From Candidatus Blackburnbacteria bacterium (GTDB lineage Bacteria > Patescibacteriota > Microgenomatia > UBA8517 > UBA10165), in contig JACPEJ010000001.1 in assembly GCA_016183565.1 (NCBI GenBank), positions 48,196-112,195 of the forward strand: a stretch of DNA of 64,000 bases. Direction: 5' to 3'. A program made the translations under genes and the position numbers. Below the pieces are notes generated by a model. The model worked only from the letters and a program-made list of their open reading frames with translations, did not search any database and was not told the DNA's origin. Shown here one piece after another: positions 7,124 to 40,809 of this stretch (the stretch's first letter is position 1; each line of letters opens with the position of its first letter).

Positions 7124-7130
7124 CAAGATA

Positions 7131-7504: not shown

Positions 7505-7505
7505 T

Positions 7506-8336
7506 ATGACCAAAAAACAACAAAAAATTCAAGTTAAAGGTATCGAAATCGTAACCTTTAAAAAGAATGAAAACGACTATATTTCCCTAACTGATATTGC
7601 TCGGTATAAGGACAAAGATCGGAGTGATTACATTTTACAAAACTGGATGAGAACTAGGAGTGCGATTGAATATCTCGGTTTATGGGAAAAACTTTATAAC
7701 CCTAATTTTAATTCCATCGAATTCGATGGGTTTAGAAAACAGTCTGGTTTGAACAGTTTTGTGCTTACTCCTAAGAAATGGATTACTCAAACCAACGCCA
7801 TTGGGATCGTCTCAAAGGCAGGAAGATACGGAGGCACCTATGCTCACTTAGATATTGCTTATGAGTTCGCTTCGTGGATTAGTGCTGAATTTAAACTGTT
7901 TCTAATCAAGGAGTTTCAAAGACTCAAGCAGGAAGAAAACTTGCGACTAGAGCAGGGCTGGGATATCAAGCGTATGCTGGCTAAGATCAATTACAAAATT
8001 CACACTGATGCAGTTAAAGCTCACTTAATTCCTGCCAATATTTCAAAGAACAGGATTAACATGGTTTATGCCAATGAAGCAGATGTACTTAACGTAGCTT
8101 TATTTGGCAAGACGGCTAAGGATTGGCGTGATGAGAATAAGAGTAAGGATGGCAACATCCGCGATTACGCTGATGTTACCCAACTAGTCGTGCTAGCCAA
8201 CCTGGAAGGTATTAATGCAGAGCTGATCCGTCAGGGACTATCTCAACCGGATCGTTTATTACAACTTAATCAAATTGCCATATCCCAGATGCAATCTTTG
8301 CTGGGAAGTAGCAGTGTGAAGAAGTTGAAAGCCTAA
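7506..8336 (+). CDS. KilA-N domain protein
   Basis: N-terminal IEIVTFKKNENDYISLTDIARYK... matches the KilA-N DNA-binding domain; typical of phage/mobile regions. Confidence 0.65.
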   Translation: MTKKQQKIQVKGIEIVTFKKNENDYISLTDIARYKDKDRSDYILQNWMRTRSAIEYLGLWEKLYNPNFNSIEFDGFRKQSGLNSFVLTPKKWITQTNAIGIVSKAGRYGGTYAHLDIAYEFASWISAEFKLFLIKEFQRLKQEENLRLEQGWDIKRMLAKINYKIHTDAVKAHLIPANISKNRINMVYANEADVLNVALFGKTAKDWRDENKSKDGNIRDYADVTQLVVLANLEGINAELIRQGLSQPDRLLQLNQIAISQMQSLLGSSSVKKLKA

Positions 8337-8395: not shown

Positions 8396-9829
8396 ATGAC
8401 TATGAATAACCAAATTAAATGTCCCTACTGCAACAAGTCGTTTGAGCCAACTGACGCTTATAAGCATGAACTAGAAGAAAAGTTACTTAGTGAAACTCAA
8501 CAAAAGCATCAGGAGGAAATCGATAAATTAAAGCTTGAGAAGCAAGAGCTTAGTATTGCCAAGGATAAAGAGTTAGAAGAAGCCAAGAAGCAGGTGGCTG
8601 AAACCGTACGCACAGAGGTTGAGAAAGAGATCAAACAAGAGTTACAAGACAAGATGGATGCGACTCAGGAACAAGCTGAAAATCAGGCGAAACGAAACAC
8701 CAAACTGCAGGAACAACTTGAAGAACAAACTAAGCTTGTGGGTGAAATGAAGAGTGAAAAAGATAAACTCCGCTTAGCACATGAGCAGGAGTTGGAAGAA
8801 ACGAAAAAGAAAACAACAGAAGCAGTTCGCCAGGAAGCCGAAAATAAGATAAGGAAAGAATTCGAAGTAAAGGTGGCATCAAGCCAAGAGGAGGCACAAG
8901 AGAGAGAAAAGCAAAATCAAGAGCTTCAAAAACAAACTGTTGAGCTCATGAAGCAACTGAGAGAATCCAAAGACGCAGAGGGTAAACTGAAAATTCAATT
9001 TGAGAGGATGTTGCTTGAAGAACAAGACAAAATCAAACAGGACGCGAAAAAGGAAACTGAAGATGCCTGGAATTTGAAAATGGCGGAAAAAGACAAACAA
9101 CTAGAAGATGCTCGCAAAGTTAATGTGGAATTACAAAGAAAACTTGAACAAAAATCGCAACAACTCCAAGGTGAAGTGCAAGAACTAAAGTTGGAAGAAC
9201 AACTCAAAGGTGAATTTCTCTTCGATGAAATAAGTGAAGTTCCCAAGGGTAGGGGCGGTGCAGATACAATCCAGGTGGTAAGAACCCAGTCAGGAGTTGT
9301 CTGTGGAACGATAGTCTGGGAGTCAAAACGGGCCCAAAGATGGGATCAAAAATGGATACAAAAGCTTCTTGATGATCAGCGTGCGGTTAAAGGAGATCTG
9401 GCTGTGTTAGTTTCCAACGTTTTCCCTGATTCTGTTAAAGGGTTTGGGATGGTTGAGAGTATTTTTGTTACAGATCTACCATCTGCACTTAGTGTCGCCT
9501 ACTTATTAAGGCAACAGCTGATGAAGGTACATTCAACCCAGATTGCCAACAGTGACAAGACAACGAAGGCAGAGATTGTTTATAACTATTTGATCAGTAA
9601 CGAATTTAAACAACGGATTGAGGTTTGGGTTGAGTATTTCAGAGAGAGGCAGGAAAAAATAAATAAAGAAAGAGTCTATTTCATCAAAAAATGGCAGGAA
9701 GAAGAAAAAAGTATTCATAAGGTTATCGCTACAACTTCTGGGATTTATGGTGATTTACAGGGATTGATCGGAAATGCTTTACCTAAGGTAGGTTATTTAG
9801 AGTTGCCGGATTCTGTAGAAGAAAAATAA
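8396..9829 (+). CDS. zinc-ribbon plus long coiled-coil protein with DUF2130-like C-terminal domain (possible PD-(D/E)xK-like fold)
   Basis: CPYCNKSF at the N-terminus, ~250 aa of E/K/Q-rich coiled coil, C-terminal GGADTIQVV...GTIVWESKR; 12-nt gap to the downstream helicase gene. Confidence 0.5.
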   Translation: MTMNNQIKCPYCNKSFEPTDAYKHELEEKLLSETQQKHQEEIDKLKLEKQELSIAKDKELEEAKKQVAETVRTEVEKEIKQELQDKMDATQEQAENQAKRNTKLQEQLEEQTKLVGEMKSEKDKLRLAHEQELEETKKKTTEAVRQEAENKIRKEFEVKVASSQEEAQEREKQNQELQKQTVELMKQLRESKDAEGKLKIQFERMLLEEQDKIKQDAKKETEDAWNLKMAEKDKQLEDARKVNVELQRKLEQKSQQLQGEVQELKLEEQLKGEFLFDEISEVPKGRGGADTIQVVRTQSGVVCGTIVWESKRAQRWDQKWIQKLLDDQRAVKGDLAVLVSNVFPDSVKGFGMVESIFVTDLPSALSVAYLLRQQLMKVHSTQIANSDKTTKAEIVYNYLISNEFKQRIEVWVEYFRERQEKINKERVYFIKKWQEEEKSIHKVIATTSGIYGDLQGLIGNALPKVGYLELPDSVEEK

Positions 9830-9841
9830 TTAAAATAGACA

Positions 9842-12800
9842 TTGAATATGAGCAATTCTTCACCACCACTCCAGACAAAATTACTCCAAAGAGCAAAAAA
9901 TAGCGATGAGTTTAATTTGTATGTGGCGGGTATAGAATGGGATCTTATTGAGCCAATTGTCATTGAAGACCGTGACGATATGCACTCCGAAAAGAAGTGG
10001 AGTGAGTTGTTGGAGCCATATTACCACCAAGTTACGAACCTGATTACATTTTGCCGTAGATTGCCAGTTACTTTATTAGCTGATGATGTTGGTTTAGGTA
10101 AAACAATTAGTGCTGGATTGGTGACAAGTGAATTAATGGCTCGTGGCAGAGTAACAAAAATACTTATTGTTTGTCCTAAATTATTAATGTTTCAGTGGAA
10201 GGAAGAGTTAGAAACTAAGTTTGGTATATCTTCCGTTATTGCTACTGGCAGAGACTTAATTAAAGCTACTCCACCAGGAGAGTTGGGAGCAGTGATAACT
10301 ACTTATGATTCTGCCCGTCTCCATCTCGATAAAATTTCTGACGTTGGTTACGAAATGTTGATTTTAGATGAAGCTCATAAGCTGCGAAATTTGTATGGTA
10401 TTGACCCGCCTCCTAAAAGAGCGGTTCGTTTTAAGCAAGCACTAGAAGATCGATTATTCAAATATGTTCTCATGCTTACTGCTACGCCGATTCAAAATAG
10501 GCTGTGGGATATTTATTCTCTAGTTGACTTACTGACTACTGCAAGGGGGCACGAAAATCCTTTCGGGAATCCGGGGATTTTTGCCCGCAGATTTATTGCG
10601 GACGCCAGGACAAAAGCCCGTCAATTAGTGCCATCAATGAAAGATGAGTTTCGGTCAATTGTCTATGGCTATATGTCACGGGTGAGACGAGCAGACGCAA
10701 ATCTTTATTTTCCTGAAAGAACTGTGCAGCTTCACAAGGTCACACCGACCCCTGACGAATTGAAGTTAATTGACATCATTGCTGAGCCAATTCAAAAGCT
10801 GAATCGTCTAGCACAAATCTCAATCCTCCAAGCACTCACAAGTAGTCCTCATGCTTTGTCAGCTCAATTAAAAAATATGGCGCGCAATGGAACCATCCCG
10901 GAGTCGTTATCATTGGAGGTTAGCGCTGTCGTTGAAAATATGAATGGCTCGGCAAAACTAAAAGGCCTCAGTACTCTTATTGACAAACTTGAAACTGAAA
11001 GACCGAATGATTGGAGATTAGTTATTTTTACTGGTCGTCGTGAAACTCAAACCACAATTGAGGAATTTTTGGGGAAACGAGGAATTACTTGCGGGCTAAT
11101 CAATGGAGATTCTGGGTTAAGGAACCAAGAAACTATAACTCAGTTTAAACAAAAACCTCCGGACATTCATGTAATTGTCTCAACAGAAGCTGGAGCTGAG
11201 GGTATAAATCTTCAAGCTGCTAATGTACTGGCTAACTACGATTTGCCGTGGAATCCAATGATTGTTGAACAAAGAGTAGGTCGGATTCAGAGGTTGGCCT
11301 CCGAGCATGCAAAGGTAAGCATTTTCAATATTATCTTGTCAAATACATTTGAAGAATACATCGTTGCTAGGCTTATGGAAAAACTCCAAATGGCCTCACA
11401 GGCAATTGGTGATGTTGAAGCAATGCTTGAAGCATCCGGGCTGGACGAGGATGAAAATGGATCGGTTGGTTTTGAGGAAATGGTAAGGCGACTTGTTATC
11501 GATTCTTTGGCAGGTAAAGATGTAGAAGTAGCAACAAAAATCGCTAGTGAAAGCATAACGAAGGCTAAGACTAAACTTAAGGAGGAACAAAAAAACATCA
11601 GTTCTATGTTAGGTACTATGGGGGATGCTTCTGAGTTTGGTCCTCGATGCCCAAGTTTACCGAAGCTAAATCACTCCATGGATATACGTGATTTTGTTTT
11701 GACTGCTCAAGAAGGCTTTGGTGCAAAAATAACTCCCCAATCTAAGGGAATATATTTTTGTGAACTTAATGATGAAAAAGAATCAATATATTTTGAGGAA
11801 AAAGATAACGGTCGAATAGACGGGGTGTTGTACGCGCAAGGTACATCTGCCTTTGAACGTTTGGTAAGTAAAGTAATTAGTAAACGACTTCACGATGTTG
11901 AAGATCTGGACAAAGATCTTGAATTAAACACGCAAGAAACCATACGAGGATGGGTCAGCAGTTTTAATGGTGCATTTAAAGAAACAGAAACAAACAAAGT
12001 CTGGAACTGTTTTGAAGGGACAGCTCTTATCAGGGTTCGTTCAACTGTAGCGCATGATAGTTATGAACGATTAGTTAGCATCGAATGCTTGTCCAAAGAT
12101 CATAAGATAGAAGTCAGACCAAAGAATCTCAAGCCCTTGGGAGAATTTATTGATGGACACTTAGGAGTTGGTGTGGTCCCAGACCAGTTGGTTGAAAAGG
12201 CAATGCTTGATGAAGGGATAGATGAATTTTGTCGTTTTTATAAAGAGAGAATGGTTCAGGAAGTGGTTGCTGCAGGCAGTGATTTACGCAAGAAAAAGAA
12301 ACTAGAAGATGAATTTACACCAAGAGTGGAAATGAGCTTAGTAGGATTGGTTGGCACGATGCACCGCCAATTACAAGTCGATGTTGCATACGATATTGAT
12401 TCCATTGCTGAGTATAAGAGCTCAATACTTGTTTTGCCTTTTAAAAAGGAGGTAATTGAAGCGCCAGTTTTGTACAAATGTGAATCAACAGGAGAGGAAG
12501 CCCCTCATGATTGTCTGGGCATATGTGATATTAGTGGACGTAGAGTACTACGTCACTTACTTGTAAGTTCTGAAGAAAGCGGAAGGAAAGCTCTGCCTGA
12601 ATATATTAGAACATGCGCTCTTTCAGGCAAAAAGGTTCTAAGTGATGAAATCGAAAAGTCAGCAATCACAGGCGAATCCGTTACAAGTTCTCTACTTAAA
12701 ACTTCAGCTTTAAGTGGCAAACGTGCAGAACTAAAGTTCTTTGGAACTTGTGAATTCACCTCTGCAGAAGTTCTCGAGGATGAATTGGCAATAAGCCAGA

Positions 12801-13552
12801 TTTCAGGAAAAAAATACAGAATGGATGAGCAACTTCAGTCTGTAGTTTCTAAGAAGACTGGTCATAAACAAGAATTTATTTTTTGTGCTGAGACGGGACA
12901 ACCTCTGTTGTCAACGGAGACAGAGACATGTGAGCTAACTAAAAAGGTTGTTATTCCCGGCCTACTTGAAACGTGTGAAGTATCTAAGAAAAAAGTTCTA
13001 CCTGCAAAGCTAGAAAAATCAGCACTTTCAGGCAAAAAAGCACTCAAGAAATACTTTGTATCAAGTAGTATTTCAGATGCACGACTACTTGAAGGAGAAG
13101 CAATTAGGTCAGTTGATGGCAATTTCTGTTCTCCTTTGGAGGCTAAAAGGTGTTCGTGGAGTGATCGAGAATGTCATTCGGATGATTTAAAGATTTGTAA
13201 TTTAACAGGTCTTCCTATTTATCTAGAGTATGTGACTAGGAAGAAACCGAGTCGATTAGAGCCACTTGTTGACCTCTTGGGAAATATCAGAAGGACGGCT
13301 GACGAGGGGGAGACTTGGGTAGCAGTCGCAGAGAAAGCTTCAACAATTCTCAAGATGAAAGGTTGTAAGGTGGAGTCTGCAGTTCTATCTCCAGATAAGG
13401 GAAAATTGGCGGTATGTATAGAGGTAAAGACTTGGTTGGGTTTGAAAGTTCGCTATGCGGGGTTGGTTTTTCTGATAAAAGATGAAGAAGTCATTGGGAA
13501 GATATCTTTAGGTAGACGCGAAAAAGGAAACTGGTTAATGGAGAATTCTTAA
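9842..13552 (+). CDS. SNF2-family helicase (DEAH ATPase core) with ~450-aa C-terminal extension containing tandem SGKK-type repeats
   Basis: motif I LLADDVGLGKTISAG, motif II LILDEAHKLRN, TATPIQNRL, helicase-C QRVGRIQRLAS; C-terminal repeats SALSGKK/AITGESV/QISGKK and Cys-rich tail. Confidence 0.85.
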   Translation: MNMSNSSPPLQTKLLQRAKNSDEFNLYVAGIEWDLIEPIVIEDRDDMHSEKKWSELLEPYYHQVTNLITFCRRLPVTLLADDVGLGKTISAGLVTSELMARGRVTKILIVCPKLLMFQWKEELETKFGISSVIATGRDLIKATPPGELGAVITTYDSARLHLDKISDVGYEMLILDEAHKLRNLYGIDPPPKRAVRFKQALEDRLFKYVLMLTATPIQNRLWDIYSLVDLLTTARGHENPFGNPGIFARRFIADARTKARQLVPSMKDEFRSIVYGYMSRVRRADANLYFPERTVQLHKVTPTPDELKLIDIIAEPIQKLNRLAQISILQALTSSPHALSAQLKNMARNGTIPESLSLEVSAVVENMNGSAKLKGLSTLIDKLETERPNDWRLVIFTGRRETQTTIEEFLGKRGITCGLINGDSGLRNQETITQFKQKPPDIHVIVSTEAGAEGINLQAANVLANYDLPWNPMIVEQRVGRIQRLASEHAKVSIFNIILSNTFEEYIVARLMEKLQMASQAIGDVEAMLEASGLDEDENGSVGFEEMVRRLVIDSLAGKDVEVATKIASESITKAKTKLKEEQKNISSMLGTMGDASEFGPRCPSLPKLNHSMDIRDFVLTAQEGFGAKITPQSKGIYFCELNDEKESIYFEEKDNGRIDGVLYAQGTSAFERLVSKVISKRLHDVEDLDKDLELNTQETIRGWVSSFNGAFKETETNKVWNCFEGTALIRVRSTVAHDSYERLVSIECLSKDHKIEVRPKNLKPLGEFIDGHLGVGVVPDQLVEKAMLDEGIDEFCRFYKERMVQEVVAAGSDLRKKKKLEDEFTPRVEMSLVGLVGTMHRQLQVDVAYDIDSIAEYKSSILVLPFKKEVIEAPVLYKCESTGEEAPHDCLGICDISGRRVLRHLLVSSEESGRKALPEYIRTCALSGKKVLSDEIEKSAITGESVTSSLLKTSALSGKRAELKFFGTCEFTSAEVLEDELAISQISGKKYRMDEQLQSVVSKKTGHKQEFIFCAETGQPLLSTETETCELTKKVVIPGLLETCEVSKKKVLPAKLEKSALSGKKALKKYFVSSSISDARLLEGEAIRSVDGNFCSPLEAKRCSWSDRECHSDDLKICNLTGLPIYLEYVTRKKPSRLEPLVDLLGNIRRTADEGETWVAVAEKASTILKMKGCKVESAVLSPDKGKLAVCIEVKTWLGLKVRYAGLVFLIKDEEVIGKISLGRREKGNWLMENS

Positions 13553-27684: not shown

Positions 27685-28650
27685 ATGCAACAGCACCCTG
27701 TTCCTCAAGAGATTACATCGTATGAGTTTAGACTTGTGGGGGATATGACCCTAAAGCAGTTTTTACAGCTTGCTTCAGGAGCTGGAATTGCTTTTCTGTT
27801 TTTTGTCTCTCCTATTCCGGGTTTTGTAAAATGGCCGCTTGTTGTTTTTGCGGCTCTTTTTGGTATTGCTTTGGCTTTCTTGCCAGTTGATGAGAGGCCG
27901 TTGTCTCACTGGATTTTTTCTTTTTTTAAGGCTATTTACTCCCCTACTCTTTATGTGTGGATGCAGGGTGGGTCTGAGGGTGTATTTCAGGAAGAGGGGG
28001 TATTGCCTGTTATTATCACTCCTCAGGGAGAAGAAAAAGCTAAAAAGTATTTAAACGAGGTTCCGCAACCACAAGTTATGGCGGGGTTTGAAGAAGAAGA
28101 GAGAACTTTTTTCCAAAAAGTTCATGATGCTTTTGCTACGGAGGCTCCACAGATTTCTACTTCCTCTGTTTTTGCTCGACCAAATGATTCTTTGCAAGCT
28201 CCACTTTCTACTCCTGTAAAAGTAGAGCATACGCAAAAGACGTTTGAGCCAGTCCGTGTGGTAAAACCTGTTTATGCTCCGGTTGGTGTAAGCCCAGTGT
28301 TTGCACAACCAGTGGTTTCTACCAATGTTTCTCAGCAAGCAGTATTTTCCGTTGAAGCAGCTCCTCCAAATCCTCCGACTCAGCTAAACACTGTCGTTGG
28401 TCAGGTCTTGGCTTTGGATGGGAAAATGGTTGAGGGTGCGATTCTTGAGATACGAGAGGTTGGAGGTCTTCCAAAAAGAGCTTTGAGAACAAATAAGGTC
28501 GGTCATTTCTTGAGTGTTACGCCGCTTGAGAACGGAGAATATGAGATAGAGACTGAAAAAGAAGGTTTTGGTTTTGATGTAGTTTCTTTTAAGGCCGAGG
28601 GGAATATAATACCGCCAATACTAATTCGCGCGAAAGCTCTGGTGAATTAA
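27685..28650 (+). CDS. PrgI-like type IV secretion membrane protein
   Basis: N-terminal PQEITSYEFRLVGDMTLKQF followed by two TM helices, a pattern seen in PrgI-family proteins next to VirB4. Confidence 0.5.
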   Translation: MQQHPVPQEITSYEFRLVGDMTLKQFLQLASGAGIAFLFFVSPIPGFVKWPLVVFAALFGIALAFLPVDERPLSHWIFSFFKAIYSPTLYVWMQGGSEGVFQEEGVLPVIITPQGEEKAKKYLNEVPQPQVMAGFEEEERTFFQKVHDAFATEAPQISTSSVFARPNDSLQAPLSTPVKVEHTQKTFEPVRVVKPVYAPVGVSPVFAQPVVSTNVSQQAVFSVEAAPPNPPTQLNTVVGQVLALDGKMVEGAILEIREVGGLPKRALRTNKVGHFLSVTPLENGEYEIETEKEGFGFDVVSFKAEGNIIPPILIRAKALVN

Positions 28651-28656
28651 ATTTGT

Positions 28657-29364
28657 ATGACAAAGCCAATAACAGCTCCGACACAACACCATTTGCCGAT
28701 TGCTGACATTGCTGATGATATTGTTTTAACAAAAGATGGTGGTGCAGCTGTTGTTCTTAAAACTACGGCTCTTAATTTTTCGTTGCTATCCGATAAGGAA
28801 CAAGAGGCTGTTACGTTTGCGTATGCAGCTCTTATTAACTCGTTGTCTTTTCCGATTCAGATCTTGGTGAGGTCGCATAAAAAAGATATTTCGAATTATA
28901 TTGCTTTTTTGGATTCTCAAGCAAAAGGTCAGCAGAATAGCAAGCTTAGGGATTTAATGATTTCTTATAAGGACTTTGTCTCTCAAATTGTTAAAAAAAG
29001 AAATGTTTTGGAGAAAGAGTTTTTTATAGTAATTCCTTTTTCCCCACTTGAGTTGGGTTTGTCTGCTGATTTTCTTATGAGTTTATTGAAGCCTGGCGGG
29101 CATAAGAAAATTCCTTTTTCTAAAGACTATGTTATAAAAAAGGCGAAAACTGCTCTTTACCCTAAACGTGACCATTTAATAAGACAATCGGGGCGTCTTG
29201 GAATTCGGATACAGCAGTTAACAACAGAGGATTTAGCTATTCTTTTTGCGAAAACATATACGCCAGAAGAGGAGAAAGTAGTACAGGGAGAACAGGTAGG
29301 GGCAGGCAATACCGAAGGTAGAAAGGAGGAGTTAAAGGAGGTTAAATATGAACCCGCTGTCTAG
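28657..29364 (+). CDS. VirB4/TrsE N-terminal domain as a separate ORF
   Basis: DIADDIVLTKDGGAAVVLKTTALNFSLLSDKEQEAV resembles the CagE/TrbE/VirB4 N-domain; overlaps the next gene by 17 nt in another frame. Confidence 0.5.
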   Translation: MTKPITAPTQHHLPIADIADDIVLTKDGGAAVVLKTTALNFSLLSDKEQEAVTFAYAALINSLSFPIQILVRSHKKDISNYIAFLDSQAKGQQNSKLRDLMISYKDFVSQIVKKRNVLEKEFFIVIPFSPLELGLSADFLMSLLKPGGHKKIPFSKDYVIKKAKTALYPKRDHLIRQSGRLGIRIQQLTTEDLAILFAKTYTPEEEKVVQGEQVGAGNTEGRKEELKEVKYEPAV

Positions 29365-31360
29365 TTTGGTATCTCATATCAAAACACCGAAGAAAAACGG
29401 CGCAAAAGAAACCACACAGGTGTCTTCGATACAAGACGTGGTTGCTCCACAAAAGATTGAGGTTGATTTTGACTTTTTCAAAGTAAATAACAAATTCTTT
29501 AGAACTTTATTTGTTGCTGGTTATCCTCGTTTTGTTTATCCGGGGTGGCTAGATAGTGTTATAAATTTTGACCACTCTTTGGATTTATCCTTTTTTATAT
29601 ATCCTGTTGAGGGAAAAAGTGTTTTGGATGAATTGAGGCGAAAAATTACTGAAATGGAAGCAGAAATTGCAACAGATTTGCAGCGTGGTAAGGTAATAAA
29701 TCCATCAACACAGGTAAGGCTGGAGGATGCCAGATCGATACAGGATCAGCTGGTTAAGGGTGCTGAAAGATTTTTCCAGTTTTCCTTTTATGTTACGATT
29801 CCTGCCAATTCAATAGAGGAGCTTAACAATATAACTGCTCAGGTTGAGTCAACATTGGGGTCTTTGCTGGTTGTTGCAAGACAGGCAAGACTTAGAATGG
29901 AGGATGGTTTTTTGACAAGTGTTCCTTTGGGGATTGACAAACTTGCAATTATGCGGAATATGGATACTACAAGTCTTTCTACCACCTTTCCCTTTTCTTC
30001 TACTGAGTTATCATCGGATCGTGGGGTGTTGTATGGAATAAATGAGGATAATGACTCTCTGGTGGTTTTTGATAGATTTGGTTTGGAAAATTATAACAGT
30101 ATTTTACTGGCCACCTCGGGCTCCGGCAAGAGTTTTTCTGTTAAATTAGAAGCGTTACGTTCTCTGATGCTTGGGGTAGAGGTTTTTATTATCGATCCTG
30201 AGCAAGAATATAAAAAATTAACAGAGGCGGTTTCTGGTGAGTTTATATCATTCTCTTTTAACTCTTCAGCAAAAATAAACCCGTTTGATCTTTCAACCCT
30301 TCGGCATCCTTCGACTTCGCTCAGGACAAGTGCTCAGGGCGAGCTGTCGGCAGAGGTAGAAAATCAGCTGGCCTTAAAAATTCTTTCGCTTCATTCTTTG
30401 TTTGGGGTGATGATGGGTAAACTTAATCCATCAGAGCAAGCTCTTCTTGATAGAGCTCTTGTTGCAACATACAAAGCAAAGGGTATTACTACTTCTCAAA
30501 CACAGGCCCGCCAGCCGGACGGGCAGGCAAAGCAACCTCCTTTAATGGAAGATTTATATAAAACACTTCTGGGTATGGAGGATCCTATTGGTCGTTCACT
30601 TGCTGACAGGCTAGAAAAATTTGTTAAAGGTTCTTTTCGGGGAATATTTGATCAACATACAAATATTAATCTTGATAATCCGTTCACGGTTTTTTCTGTG
30701 CGGGATTTAGAGGAGTCTTTACGACCCATTGCAATGTTTATAATTCTTGATTTTATATGGACTCGCGTTAAACAGGACTTAAAGAAGCGAATTTTAATAG
30801 TTGATGAGGCGTGGCACATGATGCGTTATCCGGATACTGCTCAGTTTCTTTATTCTGTTGCTAAGCGTTCTAGGAAATATTGGCTGGGCCTAACAACCAT
30901 TACGCAAGACGTTGAGGATTTTTTGTCTTTAGATATTGGGAGGGCAATTGTTACAAATTCGGCTTTAAGGCTTTTAATGAAACAGTCTCCTGCAGCAATC
31001 GATAAGGTTGGAGAGGTATTTAAGTTATCAGAAGGAGAGAAACAATTGCTTCTTTCTGCTGATGTTGGTGAGGGGATATTTTTTGCCGGAGCAAATCATG
31101 TTGCGATAAGAGTTGCTGCTTCTGATCAAGAGTATAAGTTAATTACTTCTAAGCCGGCTGATCTTAAGGAAGATAAAGATATAGAAACAGATACAGATAA
31201 AGAAGCTAGGAATAATATACAGACTCGAGCCGATGCTCAGGTTAGTAGTGTTCCACCAGTAGTAAGTAATACAGAGAGCTCTACTCCTACACCGGTGGTT
31301 TCGAACAACAAACCACCTGTAAACAAACCGGTCTTTCTTGTAGAAGAACAGGAAGGATGA
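29348..31360 (+). CDS. virB4: VirB4/TraC-family type IV secretion ATPase (C-terminal ATPase part)
   Basis: Walker A ATSGSGKSF, Walker B ILIVDEAWHMM; own AAGGAGG RBS 6 nt upstream. Confidence 0.85.
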   Translation: MNPLSSLVSHIKTPKKNGAKETTQVSSIQDVVAPQKIEVDFDFFKVNNKFFRTLFVAGYPRFVYPGWLDSVINFDHSLDLSFFIYPVEGKSVLDELRRKITEMEAEIATDLQRGKVINPSTQVRLEDARSIQDQLVKGAERFFQFSFYVTIPANSIEELNNITAQVESTLGSLLVVARQARLRMEDGFLTSVPLGIDKLAIMRNMDTTSLSTTFPFSSTELSSDRGVLYGINEDNDSLVVFDRFGLENYNSILLATSGSGKSFSVKLEALRSLMLGVEVFIIDPEQEYKKLTEAVSGEFISFSFNSSAKINPFDLSTLRHPSTSLRTSAQGELSAEVENQLALKILSLHSLFGVMMGKLNPSEQALLDRALVATYKAKGITTSQTQARQPDGQAKQPPLMEDLYKTLLGMEDPIGRSLADRLEKFVKGSFRGIFDQHTNINLDNPFTVFSVRDLEESLRPIAMFIILDFIWTRVKQDLKKRILIVDEAWHMMRYPDTAQFLYSVAKRSRKYWLGLTTITQDVEDFLSLDIGRAIVTNSALRLLMKQSPAAIDKVGEVFKLSEGEKQLLLSADVGEGIFFAGANHVAIRVAASDQEYKLITSKPADLKEDKDIETDTDKEARNNIQTRADAQVSSVPPVVSNTESSTPTPVVSNNKPPVNKPVFLVEEQEG

Positions 31361-31373
31361 GAAAATAGTAAGT

Positions 31374-33308
31374 ATGGCGTTTTTCCGACGAGGTCTTTTT
31401 GGTTTTTTAGGGAAAATTGTTTTTGATATTCGTGAGAAGTTTTCTCGGAATATTATTAGACCTTATCCTTCGACAGGCTCCCGCCAGTCCGGCGGGCAGG
31501 CAGGACAAGTTCCTTCGACTCCTCCTAGACCGCCTCGACAAATTTTTCAAAAACCCAGAGAGGAAGTGGTGGTTTCGCCTCCACCAGAAAAACCCAATAT
31601 TGCCCAATGGCTGGAACAATTTAAAGAAAAGCCGACACACAGAGATACAGACACAGATACAGATACAGAAGCAGAAGTGGGCGAGGTTGGAACCTTACCT
31701 GTGTTACCTAGACGGGTTGGAGTTTTAAGAACGGAAAACGAAAAACGAAAAACGGGTGACGGAAAAACAGGTTTAGATAATGAGCTGTTATTGCTTTATA
31801 AAAGACAATCTGTTTTGGCGGATATCAAAAATTCACTTTTATCAGCAGTTCCTTTTTGGCCACAGACCAGCCTCGCGTCTAGGCAGGCCAGGCAAGAGAG
31901 AACAGAGGGGCTTTTAAGAGTTGCCTTGGAGGAGCGGGTTCGCAAAGATCCTGAGTTTCTAAATAGTGAGACATATAGACTTTTGAAGGCCAGTATTCAA
32001 CCCGTTGCAGAAGAGGTTTTAAAAGAAACTCGGTTCCTTCCTTCTGGGGTAAAAATTGTAACCCAAAGGGAGGTTGATTCCCAAAAAGAGCATATTTGGG
32101 GTTTTGACAAGGTTTTAAGGTTACAGACTGATGTACGCAAGGGTGTTATTCGAGCTGTTCATGAACCCCTTATAAGGTTTGCTTCTAGGATTTCTCCTAC
32201 TGTATCTCGTGGGGTGGCACAGGGTGTTGGGTCGATTGCGAAAAATGTTATTTCAAGTGGGGGTTTGGGGGTACGCACTTTGGCTGGGGGTCTGTTTAGG
32301 GGTGGTGGTCAGTTGGCAGTGAGGGGTTTATTTGGGTTGGGACAGGTTATTTCTAGTGTCAGTGCCGGAGCAGCAATAGGTATCTCAGGGGGTTGGCTTG
32401 TGGTTATTATTGTTCTGGTTATCGTGGGAGCTGGTGTGTTTATGATGCTTTTGGTGGGCTCTGCGATCGGTCCTTTTGCCATTCCTAGCCGAGGTGGTGC
32501 TGTTATACCAGCTGGCAACCAGTATATAAGTATAGAGAAAGTTGTTACTCCAACTACGCTTAAGAATGAGGATTTACCTTCAAAGGCTTCTTATATTATC
32601 CGGGTCAGACCCAGAAAAGGAGAGCTAACTTTTGTTGAAATTAAGGATAGTGTGGTTGCGAGTTCTAGAAGTGGAACAAAAACCTTGGCAGAAAAAACTT
32701 GGAGTGAGGCTAGTATTGCGGGTGAAAAGACTTTTGAATATTCGATTGATTTAGACCACGATCTTTCGGATTCTGTTGTAAGTAATACAGTTACTATATC
32801 TTTTACTGTCCTAGGACAGCCAGCAAGACAAAACGATTCGGTTAATCAGGCTTTGAGAATTGGAAATCCGCCTGAGGAGTGTCCAAGTGGGTGGCCAACG
32901 GATTATGGAAAGATTACACAGGGGGCTAACTCTGGGTTTACTCATAAAGGGTATGAGGCGATTGATATTGGTAATACTTCTGGTAAAAGAATTGCTGGCG
33001 CAACTATTCGCGCATCACACAGGGGCCGAGTTTCGACAAATTGTGGATCTTCGCTTTATGGAACTTGTGCTACTATAACTACGACATGTGAAGGCAAACA
33101 AGTTACAACTCTTTATGCGCACATGTTATCTCGCAGTGTAAATGATGGACAAGAAGTGATGCGTGGTGCGGAAGTGGGAAAAGTTGGCGCAACTGGAAAT
33201 GTTTATGGGTTTGATCCCAACCATCTTCATTATGAGTTTAGAAATAATGTGCTTAAGATTGTTCCGCCTTATATTCCTGTGTTCCCGGCAGTTGGGGTAA
33301 GTTGGTGA
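31374..33308 (+). CDS. membrane-anchored M23 (LytM-type) peptidoglycan peptidase
   Basis: central TM helix; C-terminal HKGYEAIDI ... LYAHM ... HLHYEF zinc-ligand motifs of M23 peptidases. Confidence 0.75.
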   Translation: MAFFRRGLFGFLGKIVFDIREKFSRNIIRPYPSTGSRQSGGQAGQVPSTPPRPPRQIFQKPREEVVVSPPPEKPNIAQWLEQFKEKPTHRDTDTDTDTEAEVGEVGTLPVLPRRVGVLRTENEKRKTGDGKTGLDNELLLLYKRQSVLADIKNSLLSAVPFWPQTSLASRQARQERTEGLLRVALEERVRKDPEFLNSETYRLLKASIQPVAEEVLKETRFLPSGVKIVTQREVDSQKEHIWGFDKVLRLQTDVRKGVIRAVHEPLIRFASRISPTVSRGVAQGVGSIAKNVISSGGLGVRTLAGGLFRGGGQLAVRGLFGLGQVISSVSAGAAIGISGGWLVVIIVLVIVGAGVFMMLLVGSAIGPFAIPSRGGAVIPAGNQYISIEKVVTPTTLKNEDLPSKASYIIRVRPRKGELTFVEIKDSVVASSRSGTKTLAEKTWSEASIAGEKTFEYSIDLDHDLSDSVVSNTVTISFTVLGQPARQNDSVNQALRIGNPPEECPSGWPTDYGKITQGANSGFTHKGYEAIDIGNTSGKRIAGATIRASHRGRVSTNCGSSLYGTCATITTTCEGKQVTTLYAHMLSRSVNDGQEVMRGAEVGKVGATGNVYGFDPNHLHYEFRNNVLKIVPPYIPVFPAVGVSW

Positions 33309-33333
33309 GTGAGAGACACAGATACAGATAAAG

Positions 33334-34314
33334 ATGAAATTTTTGCAGAAATATTGGCTGATTTTAGTTTTAGCGATTATCGCTACTGTTTTGTTGTTTT
33401 TTTGGATTCAGGGTAGGAATTCTTCGGCTCCTGCGGACGAGGTGTTGGATGCAACCCTACCCAAGATACCATATCCAGAAATAGGTGGCCAGGAAATTCC
33501 TGCTGGTGCGAGTGTTAGTATAAATGCTTTCCCTAATGCATCAGAGGCCGTGGTTTATCAGGTTACACCTATTGCTTTTAATCATCAACAAGCTTTATCA
33601 GCAGCACAAAGTTTAGGTTTTCCTGAACAACCATCTTCTATAAACAATGATGTAGTATTTGGATCTTATTACCTGTGGATGACAGAGTCGCAGACTTTGA
33701 CAATAAGACTCTCCCCTGTTGATGTTGCTATATCAAGTGATGTTTTGAATTTGAATACAGGGCAAGAATTTCCAGATGATAGTGCGGCTGTGAATTTTAT
33801 TAATGATATTGTTGGAAAGATTGGAGTTAATACTACTGGTCTAAGGTTTATACAAACGGCATCTCGAACAGTTTTTAATGACCAAGTAAAAGAGGTTGGT
33901 TTAGTTCCTGTTGTCGAGGGGGTTCCAGTTGTTGATATTAATCCCACAGCTCCAATGGTTCTCGGGCGATTTAAAGAAGATGGTAGCTTGTTCGGTTTTT
34001 CTTATCGGAGTGGCTTCTCAAGTCCTCAGAGTGCTCTGCGCTACAAAATTAAGACAGAGGGGGAAATGAAATCTTCTTTGTTTAACGAGGGCAAGATTAT
34101 GGTGCTTGGTGATCCCCAAGAAGCACCTCGTGTTTTAACACCTTCTGTTGTTAATATTGAAAAGATAATCAATTCTCTTCTTTTTTATCCACAGAAGCCA
34201 ACCATCTTGTTTCCTATTTTTGTTCTTGAGGGTAAGGCACAGACTGGAGATGGTGAGGTGCCTATAGTTATTTATATGCCGTCTGTGAAGTCGGATTATT
34301 TGGAAGGTAGATAG
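33334..34314 (+). CDS. secreted/membrane-anchored hypothetical protein
   Basis: N-terminal TM/signal YWLILVLAIIATVLLFFWI; no known motif. Confidence 0.4.
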   Translation: MKFLQKYWLILVLAIIATVLLFFWIQGRNSSAPADEVLDATLPKIPYPEIGGQEIPAGASVSINAFPNASEAVVYQVTPIAFNHQQALSAAQSLGFPEQPSSINNDVVFGSYYLWMTESQTLTIRLSPVDVAISSDVLNLNTGQEFPDDSAAVNFINDIVGKIGVNTTGLRFIQTASRTVFNDQVKEVGLVPVVEGVPVVDINPTAPMVLGRFKEDGSLFGFSYRSGFSSPQSALRYKIKTEGEMKSSLFNEGKIMVLGDPQEAPRVLTPSVVNIEKIINSLLFYPQKPTILFPIFVLEGKAQTGDGEVPIVIYMPSVKSDYLEGR

Positions 34315-34372: not shown

Positions 34373-35536
34373 TTAATTGTTTTGGATTCGTACTGGCATT
34401 ATGATGTGTTTATAGGTTGAATCGCTTGTGTCTTGAAATACTCCGGGGGCGGTTGATCCTTGGGTTTCTAGTGATATTGTTTCTTTGCTAACGCTATTGA
34501 AGAAATCAAGGAGATATCGATAATTGTAAGCAATTTGTGTACTTTCCCCTTCTGTTTTTGCTTCTACTGTAACTTCTTCTTTCCCATGGAGGTTACTTTC
34601 GCTGGTTATTGTTATTTGGTTTTGTTTTATGTTTAGTTTAATTATACTTGCGGATTCTCTTGCAAAAACTGCTGCTCCTTTGACTGCTCTTGCTAACTCA
34701 TCTTTTCCAGCTATTACCTTTACTGTCCAATCTTTAGGTATCACTCGGTTGTAATCTGGGAATTGGCCTTCTAGGACTCGACTTGTTAAAACCACAGATT
34801 CGCTCCCAAATAAAAGCTTACCCTCTTTTTCGAGGACTGCTACTCTGATTTTTTCTGTATCGTAATTTGCTATTTTTTCTAATTCTTCGATAACTTTTGC
34901 TGGAAGTAATACTTGCTTTCCTGAATTATTTATTTGTTTTTCTTCTTTGTTTTTGTTTGTTTCAATTTCTTTGTTGAACAAATCAGAATTTGTCTTCAAC
35001 TCCGTATATGACATTCGGAATCCGTCGGTTGCTACAGCTATCAGTCGGTCTTCTTCGAATTGAAGAAGTATTCCTGTTAGAACAGGACGAGTGTCGGTGT
35101 CGGCTGCGGCAAATGCTATTTGTTTTGCAAGTGTGGAAAGTGTTTCTTTTGTGAGGGAGAAAGTTGTAATTGGTAGCTCAGAAGGTACGTTTGGGAACTC
35201 TGCTGCGGGAATACCAGCTATTGAGGCTGAAAAATCTGCGGTTGATATTTCTAGATGTCCTTTTTTTTCTTCTAGCTCTATTTTTCCTGGACGAAGATTA
35301 CCTATAATTTCGCTTAAGATTTTGGCGGGTATGGTTATATCTCCTGGTTCTTGTACTTTTGCGCCGATGCTTGCTGATATTCCTATTTCTAAGTTTGTTG
35401 CTGATATTTGAAGTTTTCCTTCTTGGGCTTTTAGAAGTATATTTCCCAGTATCGGAATTTGGGCGCGGGAGGAAACAAAGCGTGATGCTAGGGTTATTTT
35501 TTGTAGAAAATCTTCTTGAAGTACTGAAATTTTCAT
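34373..35536 (-). CDS. dnaN: DNA polymerase III beta sliding clamp
   Basis: MKISVLQEDFLQKI...PILGNILL N-terminus and three-domain length; directly downstream of dnaA. Confidence 0.9.
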   Translation of the reverse strand: MKISVLQEDFLQKITLASRFVSSRAQIPILGNILLKAQEGKLQISATNLEIGISASIGAKVQEPGDITIPAKILSEIIGNLRPGKIELEEKKGHLEISTADFSASIAGIPAAEFPNVPSELPITTFSLTKETLSTLAKQIAFAAADTDTRPVLTGILLQFEEDRLIAVATDGFRMSYTELKTNSDLFNKEIETNKNKEEKQINNSGKQVLLPAKVIEELEKIANYDTEKIRVAVLEKEGKLLFGSESVVLTSRVLEGQFPDYNRVIPKDWTVKVIAGKDELARAVKGAAVFARESASIIKLNIKQNQITITSESNLHGKEEVTVEAKTEGESTQIAYNYRYLLDFFNSVSKETISLETQGSTAPGVFQDTSDSTYKHIIMPVRIQNN

Positions 35537-38898: not shown

Positions 38899-40809
38899 CT
38901 AAACCTGCCGAATCGAATAGAAGCCTTTTCCTCTAATCCAGCGATAGGTGCCTTTATTAGTGGCAATCTGTCCTTGCTCTGCCAGCAGCTCGCTGGCAAT
39001 TTTATCATACATGGCTTTTATTACCTCTGGATCTTTCAGCGCTTCTTGCTCTTCTTCAGTTCCTTCAGTCAGAATGATATTCATTCTGTAGGTAAACGCG
39101 CCTATTGCTTTCACCATCCACACATGAGGATCATCCACTCCCTGAAATTTATTGAGAACATACAATGCCTCATCACGTGTTCCCATATCAACTTTCCCGC
39201 CTTGAGTGGCAACGGCTACTACCGCTATTTGCCCTTCTTGTGATACTCCTTCGAATCCACCTGTTGCTCTGGTTATATTGGTTAAGAATTGGAAAGCAAA
39301 GACTTTTTGCTGTGCTGTTTCATCTATTATCCCCCTGGCTCTGATCTCCACCGATGCTGCCTCCCCTGCCTCATAAGCGCTGCGAGCTATGACCTCAGGC
39401 GGCATGGCGGTCTGCTGCAGTTGTTCCACTGATAGTCTAACTGCTTCGGCAACTGGGGCTGGAGCTTGATTAACTACTGCAGTTAGTCTATTAACCACAG
39501 CTATTGGTACTTGAGATCTTTGAAATATCTCAGCAAGTTGTGCTGCCTCGGCTGTACGAGGGGTTACTGCAGCTGGTGGAGTTGGCCTTGGTTCAGGAGT
39601 TGGCGGTGGTGCTGGCCGTGGTGTTGCAGGCGGTGTTGTAGGTTGTTCTGAAACTCTGGGGGTAGGAAACCTTTGAGGCTGTAGAGTAGCTGATGCTGCC
39701 AGAACAGCAGTAGGCGCAGAAACTGGCTCTTCCTTTTTAGCTTCTTGCGTTGGTGTATTGGTTGCTGTTGCAGTAGCAGTTCTGGTCGCTGTTTTTGTTG
39801 CAGTCTGAGTTGCCGTAGCAGTATCTGTTGGGGTGGCTGTTGGAGTGGGGGTTGGGATAGGGGTTTCACTTGGGATGGCTGTGCCAGTTGCTGTGGCAGT
39901 CTTAGATGTTGTGGGTGACGCAGTTTCAGTAGGGGTTGGAGTTCTAGTTGGGGTAGATTCTGGGGTGGGAGTTTTGGTGGGAGTGGCAGATTCGGTTGAT
40001 GTACCAGTGGCTGTAGCAGTTGCAGTCGGAGAAGGAGTTGATGTATCCGCTGGTCTTGATGTCTCAGTCGGCGGGGGTGTTGGGGTATTCGATGGAACAG
40101 GTGAGGGTGTAGTGGTTGACGGTTCTGGTAGGGTTCCCGCGCCTTCTGCGCCAGAAACCGATTCTCCATTCGCTCCACCATAAGCAAGAATGCCTACTAT
40201 CACAGCCGCCGCTAATCCTTTTGCTAAATGTGCTAAATTATTTTTAATGATTCGTGGAGTTCTTCGCCAGGTGTTAGCGATGCATTGAACCGTTCCTTCC
40301 GCTTTTCCCTTAAGCTTCTCAAGAAGATGTGGGTTGAGCTGGAAAAATGGGTTCTGCCCAAGCTTGTCAAAGTTTAAAGACCCATCAGGATTTCTGTCAG
40401 AATCTGTAATATATCCATGTCTGGCGAGGTAGTCTTCCCTTCCCAGCCAGCCCAATTGGGCAGCTTGCGAACGTTTGATCGTAGAAATCAATGACTTTAC
40501 TTGTTGACGGGTCTTTTCATCAACTTCCTCAGTCTGTTCTAAAACAGCGGATGCCTTTTGCGTCACTCGCGCTGCATCGCTATCAGCCGCCTGAGACAAC
40601 CTCTCAAGTGATGCGCGCAGATATGTTTCATTCCTGACCAGACCCACGGCAGCCGAGGCCTTCATAATCTCGTCATCGGTAAGGTTGTAGAAGCGGGGAT
40701 CAACAAACTTTCTATACTCTTCCTTTGCTTGCGCCCGTCGCATCTTGCCCACCGCGCTCAGCATTTGCTGCGTTGGTGTTCTAGGTGCTTGTTCGATTCG
40801 TCGTGACAT
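38899..40809 (-). CDS. membrane-anchored hypothetical protein with long Pro/Thr/Ala-rich linker
   Basis: TM helix near residue 190; ~170 aa of TPTP/TATAT low complexity; overlapping ORFs on both strands are low-complexity artefacts. Confidence 0.5.
   Translation of the reverse strand: MSRRIEQAPRTPTQQMLSAVGKMRRAQAKEEYRKFVDPRFYNLTDDEIMKASAAVGLVRNETYLRASLERLSQAADSDAARVTQKASAVLEQTEEVDEKTRQQVKSLISTIKRSQAAQLGWLGREDYLARHGYITDSDRNPDGSLNFDKLGQNPFFQLNPHLLEKLKGKAEGTVQCIANTWRRTPRIIKNNLAHLAKGLAAAVIVGILAYGGANGESVSGAEGAGTLPEPSTTTPSPVPSNTPTPPPTETSRPADTSTPSPTATATATGTSTESATPTKTPTPESTPTRTPTPTETASPTTSKTATATGTAIPSETPIPTPTPTATPTDTATATQTATKTATRTATATATNTPTQEAKKEEPVSAPTAVLAASATLQPQRFPTPRVSEQPTTPPATPRPAPPPTPEPRPTPPAAVTPRTAEAAQLAEIFQRSQVPIAVVNRLTAVVNQAPAPVAEAVRLSVEQLQQTAMPPEVIARSAYEAGEAASVEIRARGIIDETAQQKVFAFQFLTNITRATGGFEGVSQEGQIAVVAVATQGGKVDMGTRDEALYVLNKFQGVDDPHVWMVKAIGAFTYRMNIILTEGTEEEQEALKDPEVIKAMYDKIASELLAEQGQIATNKGTYRWIRGKGFYSIRQV

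Follow-up and report, generated by a model that had tools for sequence, protein, structure and literature searches.

Organization of the locus

A type IV secretion locus in which the VirB4 ATPase is encoded by two overlapping genes raises the question of whether the split is genuine, is bridged by a programmed frameshift, or reflects a recent mutation or an error of assembly. Such a locus was analysed in a window of 64,000 nt, the whole stretch of Candidatus Blackburnbacteria DNA under study. The five open reading frames (ORFs), the 17-nt overlap, the AAGGAGG ribosome-binding site and the Walker motifs were all found as the original prediction had stated them (Table 1), and the identification as a type IV secretion system (T4SS) was borne out by family models for PrgI and for VirB4 of the CD1110 type, both matched above cut-off. 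The further description as competence-like was dropped; nothing in the module or in the window supported a competence function. The locus is very probably the core operon of a chromosomal T4SS beside dnaN and dnaA, in which the VirB4 motor consists by design of a TrsD/TraD-family protein and a 670-aa body.

Table 1. Features of the T4SS module and the adjoining genes (window coordinates)
Feature	Position	Strand	Evidence
PrgI/VirB3-like membrane protein, 321 aa	27685-28650	+	Pfam PrgI, hydropathy
TrsD/TraD-like protein, 235 aa, soluble	28657-29364	+	NCBIfam, homologues, AlphaFold/Foldseek
Shine-Dalgarno AAGGAGG of virB4, within 3' end of trsD-like gene	29335-29341	+	sequence
trsD-like/virB4 overlap, 17 nt	29348-29364	+	sequence
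VirB4 ATPase body, 670 aa	29348-31360	+	NCBIfam, Pfam, PDB matches
Membrane protein with C-terminal M23 domain, 644 aa	31374-33308	+	Pfam, hydropathy
N-terminally anchored or secreted protein, 326 aa, last gene of cluster	33334-34314	+	hydropathy
dnaN	34373-35536	-	Pfam DNA_pol3_beta x3
dnaA	35720-37120	-	Pfam Bac_DnaA

The 321-aa product of the first gene matched Pfam PrgI over residues 5-83 (27.5 bits, cut-off 27) and carries an N-terminal hydrophobic hairpin at residues 26-71 by hydropathy, followed by a long C-terminal extension of a kind found in none of the canonical VirB3 proteins; a prgI gene precedes the trsD-like gene in 78 of 80 related loci. Downstream of virB4, the 644-aa protein combines a hydrophobic region (residues 328-372) with a Peptidase_M23 domain (Pfam, 53 bits, residues 541-626), and this peptidoglycan endopeptidase is likely the cell-wall-opening partner, an analogue of VirB1. 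Peptidases downstream of virB4 have been noted in Saccharibacteria (PMC12102498). The last protein of the cluster, with a hydrophobic N-terminus (residues 1-29), returned no Pfam or NCBIfam match and was found by tblastn in only 6 of the 80 related loci. No VirB6- or VirB2-like gene was recognised within the five-gene cluster; VirB6 is scarce in Microgenomatia (PMC12102498). Promoter scanning of the module gave nothing above shuffled expectation, and terminator scanning gave no signal in its intergenic stretches.

Beyond dnaA, rpmH, rnpA, yidD and yidC were identified on the plus strand (Pfam Ribosomal_L34, Ribonuclease_P, YidD and 60KD_IMP), and the stretch from dnaN to yidC beside the module is the replication-origin region. 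dnaN stands 3' of the module in 52 of the 80 related loci. A Pfam scan of 31 window ORFs, including all of at least 450 aa, returned no relaxase or coupling-protein domain, so that the linked relaxase and type IV coupling protein of conjugative MPF-FATA systems (pGO1/pSK41) were absent among the scanned ORFs.

The VirB4 body

The 670-aa protein carries Walker A (GSGKS) at residue 258 and IVDEAWH, in the Walker B region, at residue 484. It reached 370.2 bits against the VirB4 CD1110 family model NF045971 (cut-off 325), with an alignment spanning model positions 184-751 of 752; beginning at 184, this single polypeptide does not hold a complete N-terminal domain. Pfam returned P-loop_TraG, AAA_10 and DUF87, and the match to the VirB4 C-terminal domain in the PDB (4AG5) had an E-value of 3.8e-47. 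The content of the protein is thus the second half of the N-terminal domain and the RecA-like C-terminal domain. At least 8000 homologues were returned by the search; among the best 120, 119 were of the same short form (572-724 aa). For the 670-aa and the 235-aa protein alike, the database entries with identical sequence carry the label Candidatus Blackburnbacteria, and the nearest homologues with an organism given were almost all from Patescibacteria (Blackburnbacteria, Woesebacteria and Microgenomates).

The TrsD-like protein

The N-terminal part absent from the 670-aa VirB4 is supplied by the trsD-like gene upstream. Against the full-length VirB4_plasma model NF045975 (894 positions), the 235-aa ORF aligned at positions 107-233 (E 8.4e-6) and the 670-aa ORF at 271-893, and the two ORFs are therefore colinear on one VirB4 model. 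The 235-aa protein thus shows homology to the VirB4 N-terminal portion, as do TrsD/TraD proteins, and it has their position in the gene order, as a small soluble protein (no transmembrane segment by hydropathy) between a VirB3-like gene and a VirB4 of about 600-670 aa. The score against the NCBIfam TrsD/TraD model itself, NF041427, was 29.3 bits (E 6.8e-7), far below the curated cut-off of 200, and hhalign of the TrsD-like profile against TrsD of pSK41 gave a probability of 54% (E 1.2e-4); on both counts the link to staphylococcal TrsD is remote. Judged by sequence, the protein is a remote relative, outside the NCBIfam TrsD subfamily as curated, and its link to a Pontibacillus protein (below) and to VirB4 N-termini is strong.

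A search with the 235-aa ORF yielded 1580 homologues, the best 120 of which were all 189-255 aa long; together with the homologues of the ATPase, these numbers place the observation far beyond chance. The conserved core spans residues ~3-205, and residues 206-235 form a variable tail; the alignment has 49 invariant columns and a mean column identity of 52%. The Pfam search returned no family for this ORF. A label precomputed in the database, PF26593.2, is attached to the identical 235-aa protein, to 118 of 119 listed homologues and to fused VirB4 proteins. When the PDB was searched by sequence alone, neither the protein nor its profile retrieved anything relevant. The AlphaFold model (pLDDT 78.7) was compared with the PDB by Foldseek, and the 14 best matches were all TrwK/VirB4, with scores that were modest for this model alone (E about 2e-3, TM 0.32-0.37). 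The proposed homology to the VirB4 N-terminal domain is upheld by the NCBIfam match, by these Foldseek matches and by colinear natural fusions.

Natural fusions of the two parts

Single-chain TrsD-VirB4 proteins occur in some Microgenomates, e.g. Amesbacteria, and an alignment was built from 50 of them; a mixed MAFFT alignment of one fusion with separate TrsD and VirB4 sequences was discarded, as the TrsD rows were scattered along its full length. One fused relative (L009) matched positions 104-889 of the 894-position VirB4 model with residues 10-780 in one stretch. Another (P0177) is 58% identical to the 235-aa protein over its residues 5-204 and 68% identical to the window's VirB4. Its AlphaFold model, of moderate confidence (pLDDT 72, pTM 0.57), aligned with full-length TrwK of R388 over 869 columns (E 1.4e-24, TM 0.65/0.66); the model is that of a fused orthologue, not of the window's own proteins. 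Since this predicted fold resembles full-length TrwK/VirB4, the TrsD-like protein and the VirB4 body together would make one VirB4. The window's two proteins are likewise jointly colinear with the full-length VirB4 proteins of R388 (TrwK, PDB 7O41/8RTD), of the CD1110 family and of the Mycoplasma ICE, each of which is one polypeptide where the window has two. The structural support for TrsD and a short VirB4 forming one complete VirB4 fold is a small addition to published work.

The junction and its conservation

The virB4 ORF lies in the +1 frame relative to the trsD-like ORF. Its ATG at 29348 is preceded at 6 nt by the AAGGAGG sequence, and the trsD-like gene ends in TAG (29362-29364). Since virB4 has a Shine-Dalgarno sequence of its own and starts 17 nt ahead of the end of the trsD-like gene, VirB4 would be made separately from the TrsD-like protein; from the overlap, translational coupling of the two genes is to be expected, and the gene arrangement suggests roughly equal amounts of both proteins.

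The split was compared across 80 related species-representative loci. Separate ORFs in the order prgI-trsD-virB4 were present in 76 and a single fused ORF in 4, and among the 150 best cluster representatives with a TrsD-like domain only one was fused to VirB4. In the 76 split relatives the virB4 frame was +2 in 36, +1 in 30 and the same frame behind a stop in 10, with spacing between the extremes of a 32-nt overlap and a 145-nt gap; the commonest junction was a 4-nt ATGA overlap (24/76), with a 14-nt overlap (6) and then short gaps next in frequency. Many relatives likewise have a Shine-Dalgarno-like sequence ahead of the predicted start of virB4. Of the options first offered, the genuine split is favoured by this comparison, with its 76 split relatives and three frame relations, and the split of VirB4 is conserved and very probably by design. 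The view that a separately expressed VirB4 N-domain is unusual did not hold, given the 76 split species, the short form of nearly all the best VirB4 homologues, the TrsD family (pSK41/pGO1) already named in Gram-positive conjugation systems and the report on Patescibacteria (PMC12102498).

A programmed +1 ribosomal frameshift (or transcriptional slippage) within the overlap would yield a full-length VirB4, perhaps beside the separate products. The overlap and the +1 frame fit such an event, and because natural single-chain TrsD-VirB4 proteins exist in some relatives, a product fused by frameshifting would be functional. The virB4 frame is closed by a TAA at 29333-29335, four codons before its ATG, which leaves only 29336-29361 for a shift; this last interval contains no X_XXY_YYZ slippery heptamer, no homopolymer and no prfB-like motif, and the search for slippery heptamers that had been proposed for the overlap gave none. 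The strong Shine-Dalgarno sequence and separate ATG of virB4 also speak against it, and the variable frame relation and spacing in the 76 relatives mean that no frameshift site is conserved. A programmed shift is accordingly very improbable.

The same very low probability is assigned to a recent frameshift mutation or a 1-nt assembly error that broke a single virB4 and left a pseudogene or an artefact. Fused ORFs occur in ~5% of the related species (4/80) and in at least 50 protein clusters, which makes a fused ancestor conceivable. Against a recent break, proteins identical to the 235-aa and 670-aa products were found on 6 and 4 contigs, respectively, from different sources, both ORFs are intact and strongly conserved, and the overlap has no homopolymer run. 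The split is common to Blackburnbacteria, Woesebacteria, Shapirobacteria and other Microgenomates, down to 45-55% identity, and Firmicutes plasmids are split likewise. No pseudogene or frameshift flag is warranted for the pair in annotation. The evidence that split and fused states interconvert within Microgenomates is a small addition to published knowledge.

Comparison with known systems

That TrsD stands beside virB4 in Patescibacteria is already known. In the survey of Quiñonero-Coronel et al. (2025, Microb Genom, PMC12102498), TrsD was described as distantly homologous to the N-terminal portion of VirB4 and as outnumbering every other T4SS component in Patescibacteria (1,664 copies beside virB4), and the T4SS of Microgenomatia was placed near dnaA, dnaN, rnpA and rpmH. 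By the account given there, TrsD is essential in Ca. Southlakia epibionticum (Wang et al. 2023, via PMC12102498). Guglielmini et al. (2014) are cited elsewhere for the homology of TrsD and VirB4; the main text of that paper does not mention TrsD. The chromosomal systems of the survey likewise have a monoderm (MPF-FATA-related) VirB4 with a TrsD homologue directly upstream and an adjoining PrgI/VirB3 homologue, a peptidoglycan hydrolase downstream, no nearby relaxase or coupling protein, and dnaN, dnaA, rpmH and rnpA beside them. The window shows the same set of traits, with virB4 next to TrsD and PrgI/VirB3 genes, close to dnaA and dnaN, in a cluster that has no relaxase; nothing essential differs, though at 321 aa the VirB3-like protein is of unusual length.

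Gene order and sizes also agree with TrsC-TrsG of pSK41/pGO1 and TraC-TraD-TraE of pIP501 (MPF-FATA, pGO1 subclass). pSK41 encodes TrsC, TrsD (227 aa), TrsE (672 aa), TrsF (a membrane protein) and TrsG (a CHAP hydrolase), and shares with the window a small two-TM protein, a soluble TrsD of ~230 aa, a VirB4 of ~670 aa, a membrane protein and a cell-wall hydrolase. TrsE aligned with the window's VirB4 end to end (27% identity, E 1e-50). The pSK41/pGO1 systems differ in being plasmid-borne conjugation machines with relaxase, coupling protein and topoisomerase, and their hydrolase is of the CHAP type in pSK41, whereas that of the window is M23.

The closest plasmid-borne VirB4 (37% identity, 621 aa) was found on a megaplasmid of Pontibacillus sp. 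ALD_SL1 (NZ_CP062975, 355093-361354). A 274-aa TrsD-like protein (hhalign against the TrsD-like profile 99.6%, E 1e-23) is encoded upstream and overlaps virB4 by 11 nt, a 116-aa TraL/VirB3-like protein precedes it, and an M23 endopeptidase follows virB4. This cluster differs in belonging to Firmicutes and being plasmid-borne, and its upstream genes are annotated as hypothetical only. TraD of the pELF plasmid was considered as a relative and rejected, being VirD4-type and unrelated.

Proposed function of the two-part VirB4

In the reading that we favour, the TrsD/TraD-family protein, through its ~205 conserved residues, would form the first part of the VirB4 N-terminal domain and the 670-aa body its remainder together with the ATPase domain, and the two would associate non-covalently into a complete VirB4 protomer. 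In the R388 structure, the N-terminal domain of VirB4 connects the protomers, is embedded in the membrane and touches both VirB3 and VirB8 (PMC12857230); by analogy, the TrsD piece may attach the ATPase to the PrgI/VirB3-like membrane protein, whose gene directly precedes the trsD-like gene. Cell-wall opening would fall to the M23 protein, and the system as a whole, by analogy with Saccharibacteria, would serve an epibiotic lifestyle, not conjugation.

Alternatively, the TrsD-like protein, though derived from a VirB4 N-terminus, might now work on its own in an accessory or regulatory role, for example as a chaperone of assembly, as a gate or, by means of its tail, as an adaptor for substrates, rather than as an obligate structural part of the protomer. 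TrsD homologues unassociated with virB4 have been reported in Gracilibacteria (PMC12102498), and in other Patescibacteria 59 of the 150 best TrsD-like cluster representatives carry disordered tails of 100-500 aa that end in conserved short motifs (LPP[IL][AP]EI or PF[VI]VEEL) and suggest additional interactions. Tight, coupled linkage to virB4 in nearly all relatives, the repeated natural fusions, the full-length VirB4-like fold predicted for a fusion, and the lack of the first ~180-200 residues of full-length VirB4 models in the 670-aa body all count against this alternative, which we consider improbable.

Within the two-part reading it is possible, though rather unlikely, that fission of VirB4 is not neutral, and that the N-terminal subdomain, dosed on its own and open to exchange, has become an adaptor that connects the VirB3-like protein with the ATPase; evolution would then toggle between split and fused states, and the tails would tether TrsD in trans elsewhere. 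TrsD would in that case offer a point of regulatory control over assembly of this T4SS, which is essential in the only Patescibacterium tested to date. As a handle on T4SS function, the present locus is no better than the published Saccharibacteria system. For annotation, HYU80_00405 (235 aa, 'hypothetical protein') is to be renamed a TrsD-like VirB4 N-terminal module.

Gene layout and genomic context

The five + strand ORFs of the module are tightly packed, and two more ORFs then follow on the minus strand. ORF3 gave Pfam matches to P-loop_TraG, AAA_10 and DUF87, carried Walker A (GSGKS, residue 258) and IVDEAWH (residue 484) motifs, and matched a VirB4 C-terminal domain of known structure, 4AG5 (E 3.8e-47); a single hydrophobic region (residues 328–372) was found in ORF4, and ORF5 had no match in the family scans (Pfam, NCBIfam). 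Every detail claimed for the five-ORF module, the VirB4 identity and the Walker motifs was borne out by ORF calls and family scans. At 321 aa, ORF1 is roughly three times as long as a typical VirB3; its two-helix hairpin is followed by another ~250 aa, in which residues 175–296 weakly match CarboxypepD_reg and PEGA-like models, possibly an extracellular beta-rich domain. The module lies among dnaN, dnaA, rpmH, rnpA, yidD and yidC, exactly as reported for T4SS in Microgenomatia and Paceibacteria, which occur near dnaA, dnaN, rnpA and rpmH (PMC12102498).

Coordinates of features in the window and in related loci (L-numbers; GTDB species representatives)
Feature	Position	Strand	Remarks
ORF1, PrgI/VirB3-like	27685–28650	+	321 aa; PrgI 27.5 bits (cut-off 27)
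ORF2, TrsD-like	28657–29364	+	235 aa; NCBIfam TrsD/TraD
ORF3, VirB4	29348–31360	+	670 aa; CD1110-family VirB4 model 370 bits (cut-off 325)
ORF4, M23 protein	31374–33308	+	644 aa; Peptidase_M23 at residues 541–626
ORF5	33334–34314	+	326 aa
TAA in virB4 frame	29333–29335		four codons ahead of ORF3 ATG
AAGGAGG	29335–29341		6 nt 5' of ORF3 ATG at 29348
Apparent tRNA gene with group I intron	6811–7125	+	
Intron_gpI match	6832–7073		Rfam; 61 bits, E 4e-13
KilA-N domain protein	7440–8336	+	adjoins intron-containing tRNA
DUF2130 protein	8396–9829	+	between KilA-N and SNF2/helicase genes
SNF2/helicase protein	9842–13552	+	1236 aa
Pfam-less ORF	38899–40809	-	
Pfam-less ORF	56812–58188	-	
Pfam-less ORF	58263–60299	+	
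Pfam-less ORF	60335–61741	-	
Fused TrsD-VirB4 ORFs	L008:2613–5210, L009:5980–8490, L017:1865–4381, L070:5938–8685		Microgenomates
Intein-bearing VirB4 ORFs	L039:1709–5326, L044:6614–10141, L047:6706–10293, L049:6660–10289, L061:6608–10324		Pfam Intein_splicing + LAGLIDADG_3

Conservation of the two-gene VirB4

A search of 5.8 billion proteins returned 1580 ORF2 homologues, the best 120 of which were all 189–255 aa long (55–100% identity); an ORF3 search gave proteins of 572–724 aa for 119 of its 120 best matches, the lone exception being P0177, an 809-aa protein containing both parts. When 1.84 billion cluster representatives were searched with a profile, 2941 proteins proved to have a TrsD-like domain, and VirB4 was fused to it in only 1 of the best 150. 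Related loci were taken from one genome per species (GTDB); 279 encoded an ORF2 relative and the best 80 were examined. The order prgI-trsD-virB4 was present in 78 of the 80, with an opposite-strand dnaN after the module in 52 of these 78. Separate trsD and virB4 ORFs were found in 76 loci and a single fused ORF of 836–915 aa in 4, so that comparison with orthologues supported a genuine split, the prevailing though not the uniform state. Relative to trsD, virB4 lay in the +2 frame (36 of the 76 split loci), the +1 frame (30) or, beyond an intervening stop codon, the same frame (10); a 4-nt ATGA overlap was the most frequent junction (24), followed by a 14-nt overlap (6), and the remainder were overlaps of up to 32 nt or gaps of 1–145 nt. 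Past residue ~205, the C-terminal tail of the TrsD-like proteins varied in length and sequence. The two-gene VirB4 is a known, widespread arrangement, and the original prediction had read the sequence correctly: according to Quiñonero-Coronel et al. 2025 (PMC12102498), TrsD ranks first in abundance among the T4SS components of Patescibacteria (2,272 homologues, 1,664 associated with virB4), and Ca. S. epibionticum has it as an essential protein.

The ORF2/ORF3 junction

The 17-nt overlap, the different (+1) frame of ORF3 and the AAGGAGG ribosome-binding site of its own were all found in the sequence. Besides a genuine split, the original prediction had left two explanations standing. A programmed frameshift is disfavoured by the junction sequence: the virB4 frame is closed by TAA, neither an X_XXY_YYZ heptamer nor a homopolymer of at least 5 bases was found between this TAA and the ORF2 stop in the window, and comparison of the 76 split loci revealed no conserved junction feature, junctions varying among relatives. 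A recent frameshift mutation, like an assembly error, fits poorly with the recurrence of the same ORF2/ORF3 sequences on several contigs; a protein identical to ORF2 (a Candidatus Blackburnbacteria hypothetical protein) is on record from 6. Because of the variable junctions and this recurrence, the frameshift and error readings were rejected, on the basis of assembled sequences and relatives, raw reads aside.

ORF2 and ORF3 as probable parts of one VirB4

ORF2 matched the NCBIfam TrsD/TraD family weakly (E 6.8e-7) and, also weakly, positions 107–233 of the 894-position full-length VirB4 model (NCBIfam), of which ORF3 spans positions 271–893; on the CD1110 model, the ORF3 alignment begins at position 184 of 752. 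Judged by these alignments, the two ORFs are colinear, complementary pieces of one VirB4, with no duplication. An AlphaFold model of ORF2 (input including 20 homologues; pLDDT 78.7) was searched against the PDB with Foldseek, and the 14 best matches were all R388 TrwK/VirB4 chains, with modest scores (E 2e-3 to 5e-2, TM 0.32–0.37). Together with the match to positions 107–233, these agree with the proposed likeness of the 235-aa ORF to the VirB4 N-terminal domain.

Natural TrsD-VirB4 fusions (P0177, P0275 and P0391–P0438 among database proteins) are 783–915 aa long overall. About 50 further clusters (783–897 aa) were retrieved with P0177, and one fusion cluster from Candidatus Amesbacteria was present on 17 contigs; the fusions are therefore real and not assembly errors. 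Since single-chain fusions occur in some Microgenomates, fission or fusion of the gene has happened repeatedly in this class. Residues 10–780 of the fused ORF of locus L009 align in one stretch to positions 104–889 of the full-length VirB4 model. P0177 shares 58% identity with ORF2 over residues 5–204 and 68% with ORF3, and its AlphaFold model (alignment of 50 fusions; pLDDT 72.4) matched full-length TrwK/VirB4 with E 1.4e-24 and TM 0.65 (query) or 0.66 (target) over 869 alignment columns; the fused form is thus modelled with a full-length VirB4 fold. In the sequence alignment TrwK residue 446 corresponds to P0177 residue 464, so the residue count ahead of the ATPase domain is about equal in both, and the 670-aa ORF3 lacks about as many residues as the TrsD core contains. 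The predicted structure of this fused orthologue supports the reading that TrsD and the short VirB4 make up one VirB4; this support and the split/fused polymorphism within Microgenomates are minor additions.

Proposed function

The two genes are separately initiated, their split is conserved and the pieces are colinear with VirB4. Their overlap may couple translation, and the TrsD-like protein would bind the VirB4 body, completing its N-terminal domain; in this way it would tie the product of the upstream gene, the PrgI/VirB3-like hairpin protein, to the ATPase. The M23 protein would open the cell wall. In R388, protomers are joined through the VirB4 N-terminal domains, which are also embedded in the membrane and make contacts with VirB3 and with VirB8 (2025 review, PMC12857230). 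Conjugation is an unlikely role because the scanned ORFs, which include every window ORF of at least 450 aa, yielded neither a relaxase nor a coupling-protein domain; no support was found for the label 'competence-like' either.

Similar architectures outside Patescibacteria

Plasmid pSK41 has the order trsC (135 aa), trsD (227 aa, annotated TrsD/TraD family), trsE (672 aa), membrane protein and CHAP hydrolase. The window VirB4 aligned end to end with its TrsE (27% identity, E 1e-50), whereas its TrsD and the TrsD-like profile gave no more than a remote match (hhalign 54%, E 1.2e-4). Among plasmids, a Pontibacillus megaplasmid encodes the nearest VirB4 (37% identity); the genes ahead of this 621-aa VirB4 code for proteins of 116 aa (TraL-like) and 274 aa, and an M23 endopeptidase follows. 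The 274-aa protein, whose gene overlaps virB4 by 11 nt, is a clear ORF2 homologue (hhalign 99.6%, E 1.1e-23) and also matches N-terminal positions of two VirB4 models.

Additional observations

On either side of the Intron_gpI match the sequence looks like half a tRNA (TCCCCGGTAGCTCAGTGGTAGAGCGG... and ...GGTTCGAATCCTACCCGGGGAGCA); in the whole 64-kb window ARAGORN predicted no tRNA. The adjoining KilA-N, DUF2130 and SNF2/helicase genes may form a mobile or defence-type island. Four large ORFs (458–678 aa) had no Pfam match at E ≤ 0.001.

Outside the window's clade (cluster representatives P0241–P0390), most TrsD-like proteins carry Q/P/S/T-rich tails of 100–500 aa. Among the best 150 of the 2941, C-terminal ends were LPP[IL][AP]EI in 34 and PF[VI]VEEL(xDDYG) in 25; from their sequences these look like conserved motifs for docking, placed behind a disordered linker. 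In ORF2 the tail is short and has neither motif. In 5 of the 80 related species the VirB4 ORF reaches 1175–1238 aa, the extra length being a ~590-aa intein at the Walker A P-loop, ending ...VHN/SF (slash, end of intein). The long-tail motifs in other Patescibacteria and these Walker A inteins are further minor additions. Many loci from binchicken co-assemblies (L002, L004, L005, L010 and others) bear the record title 'uncultured Gammaproteobacteria bacterium'; these titles look like mislabels, because gene content and the nearest organism-named relatives of these Microgenomates-type loci are those of Patescibacteria.
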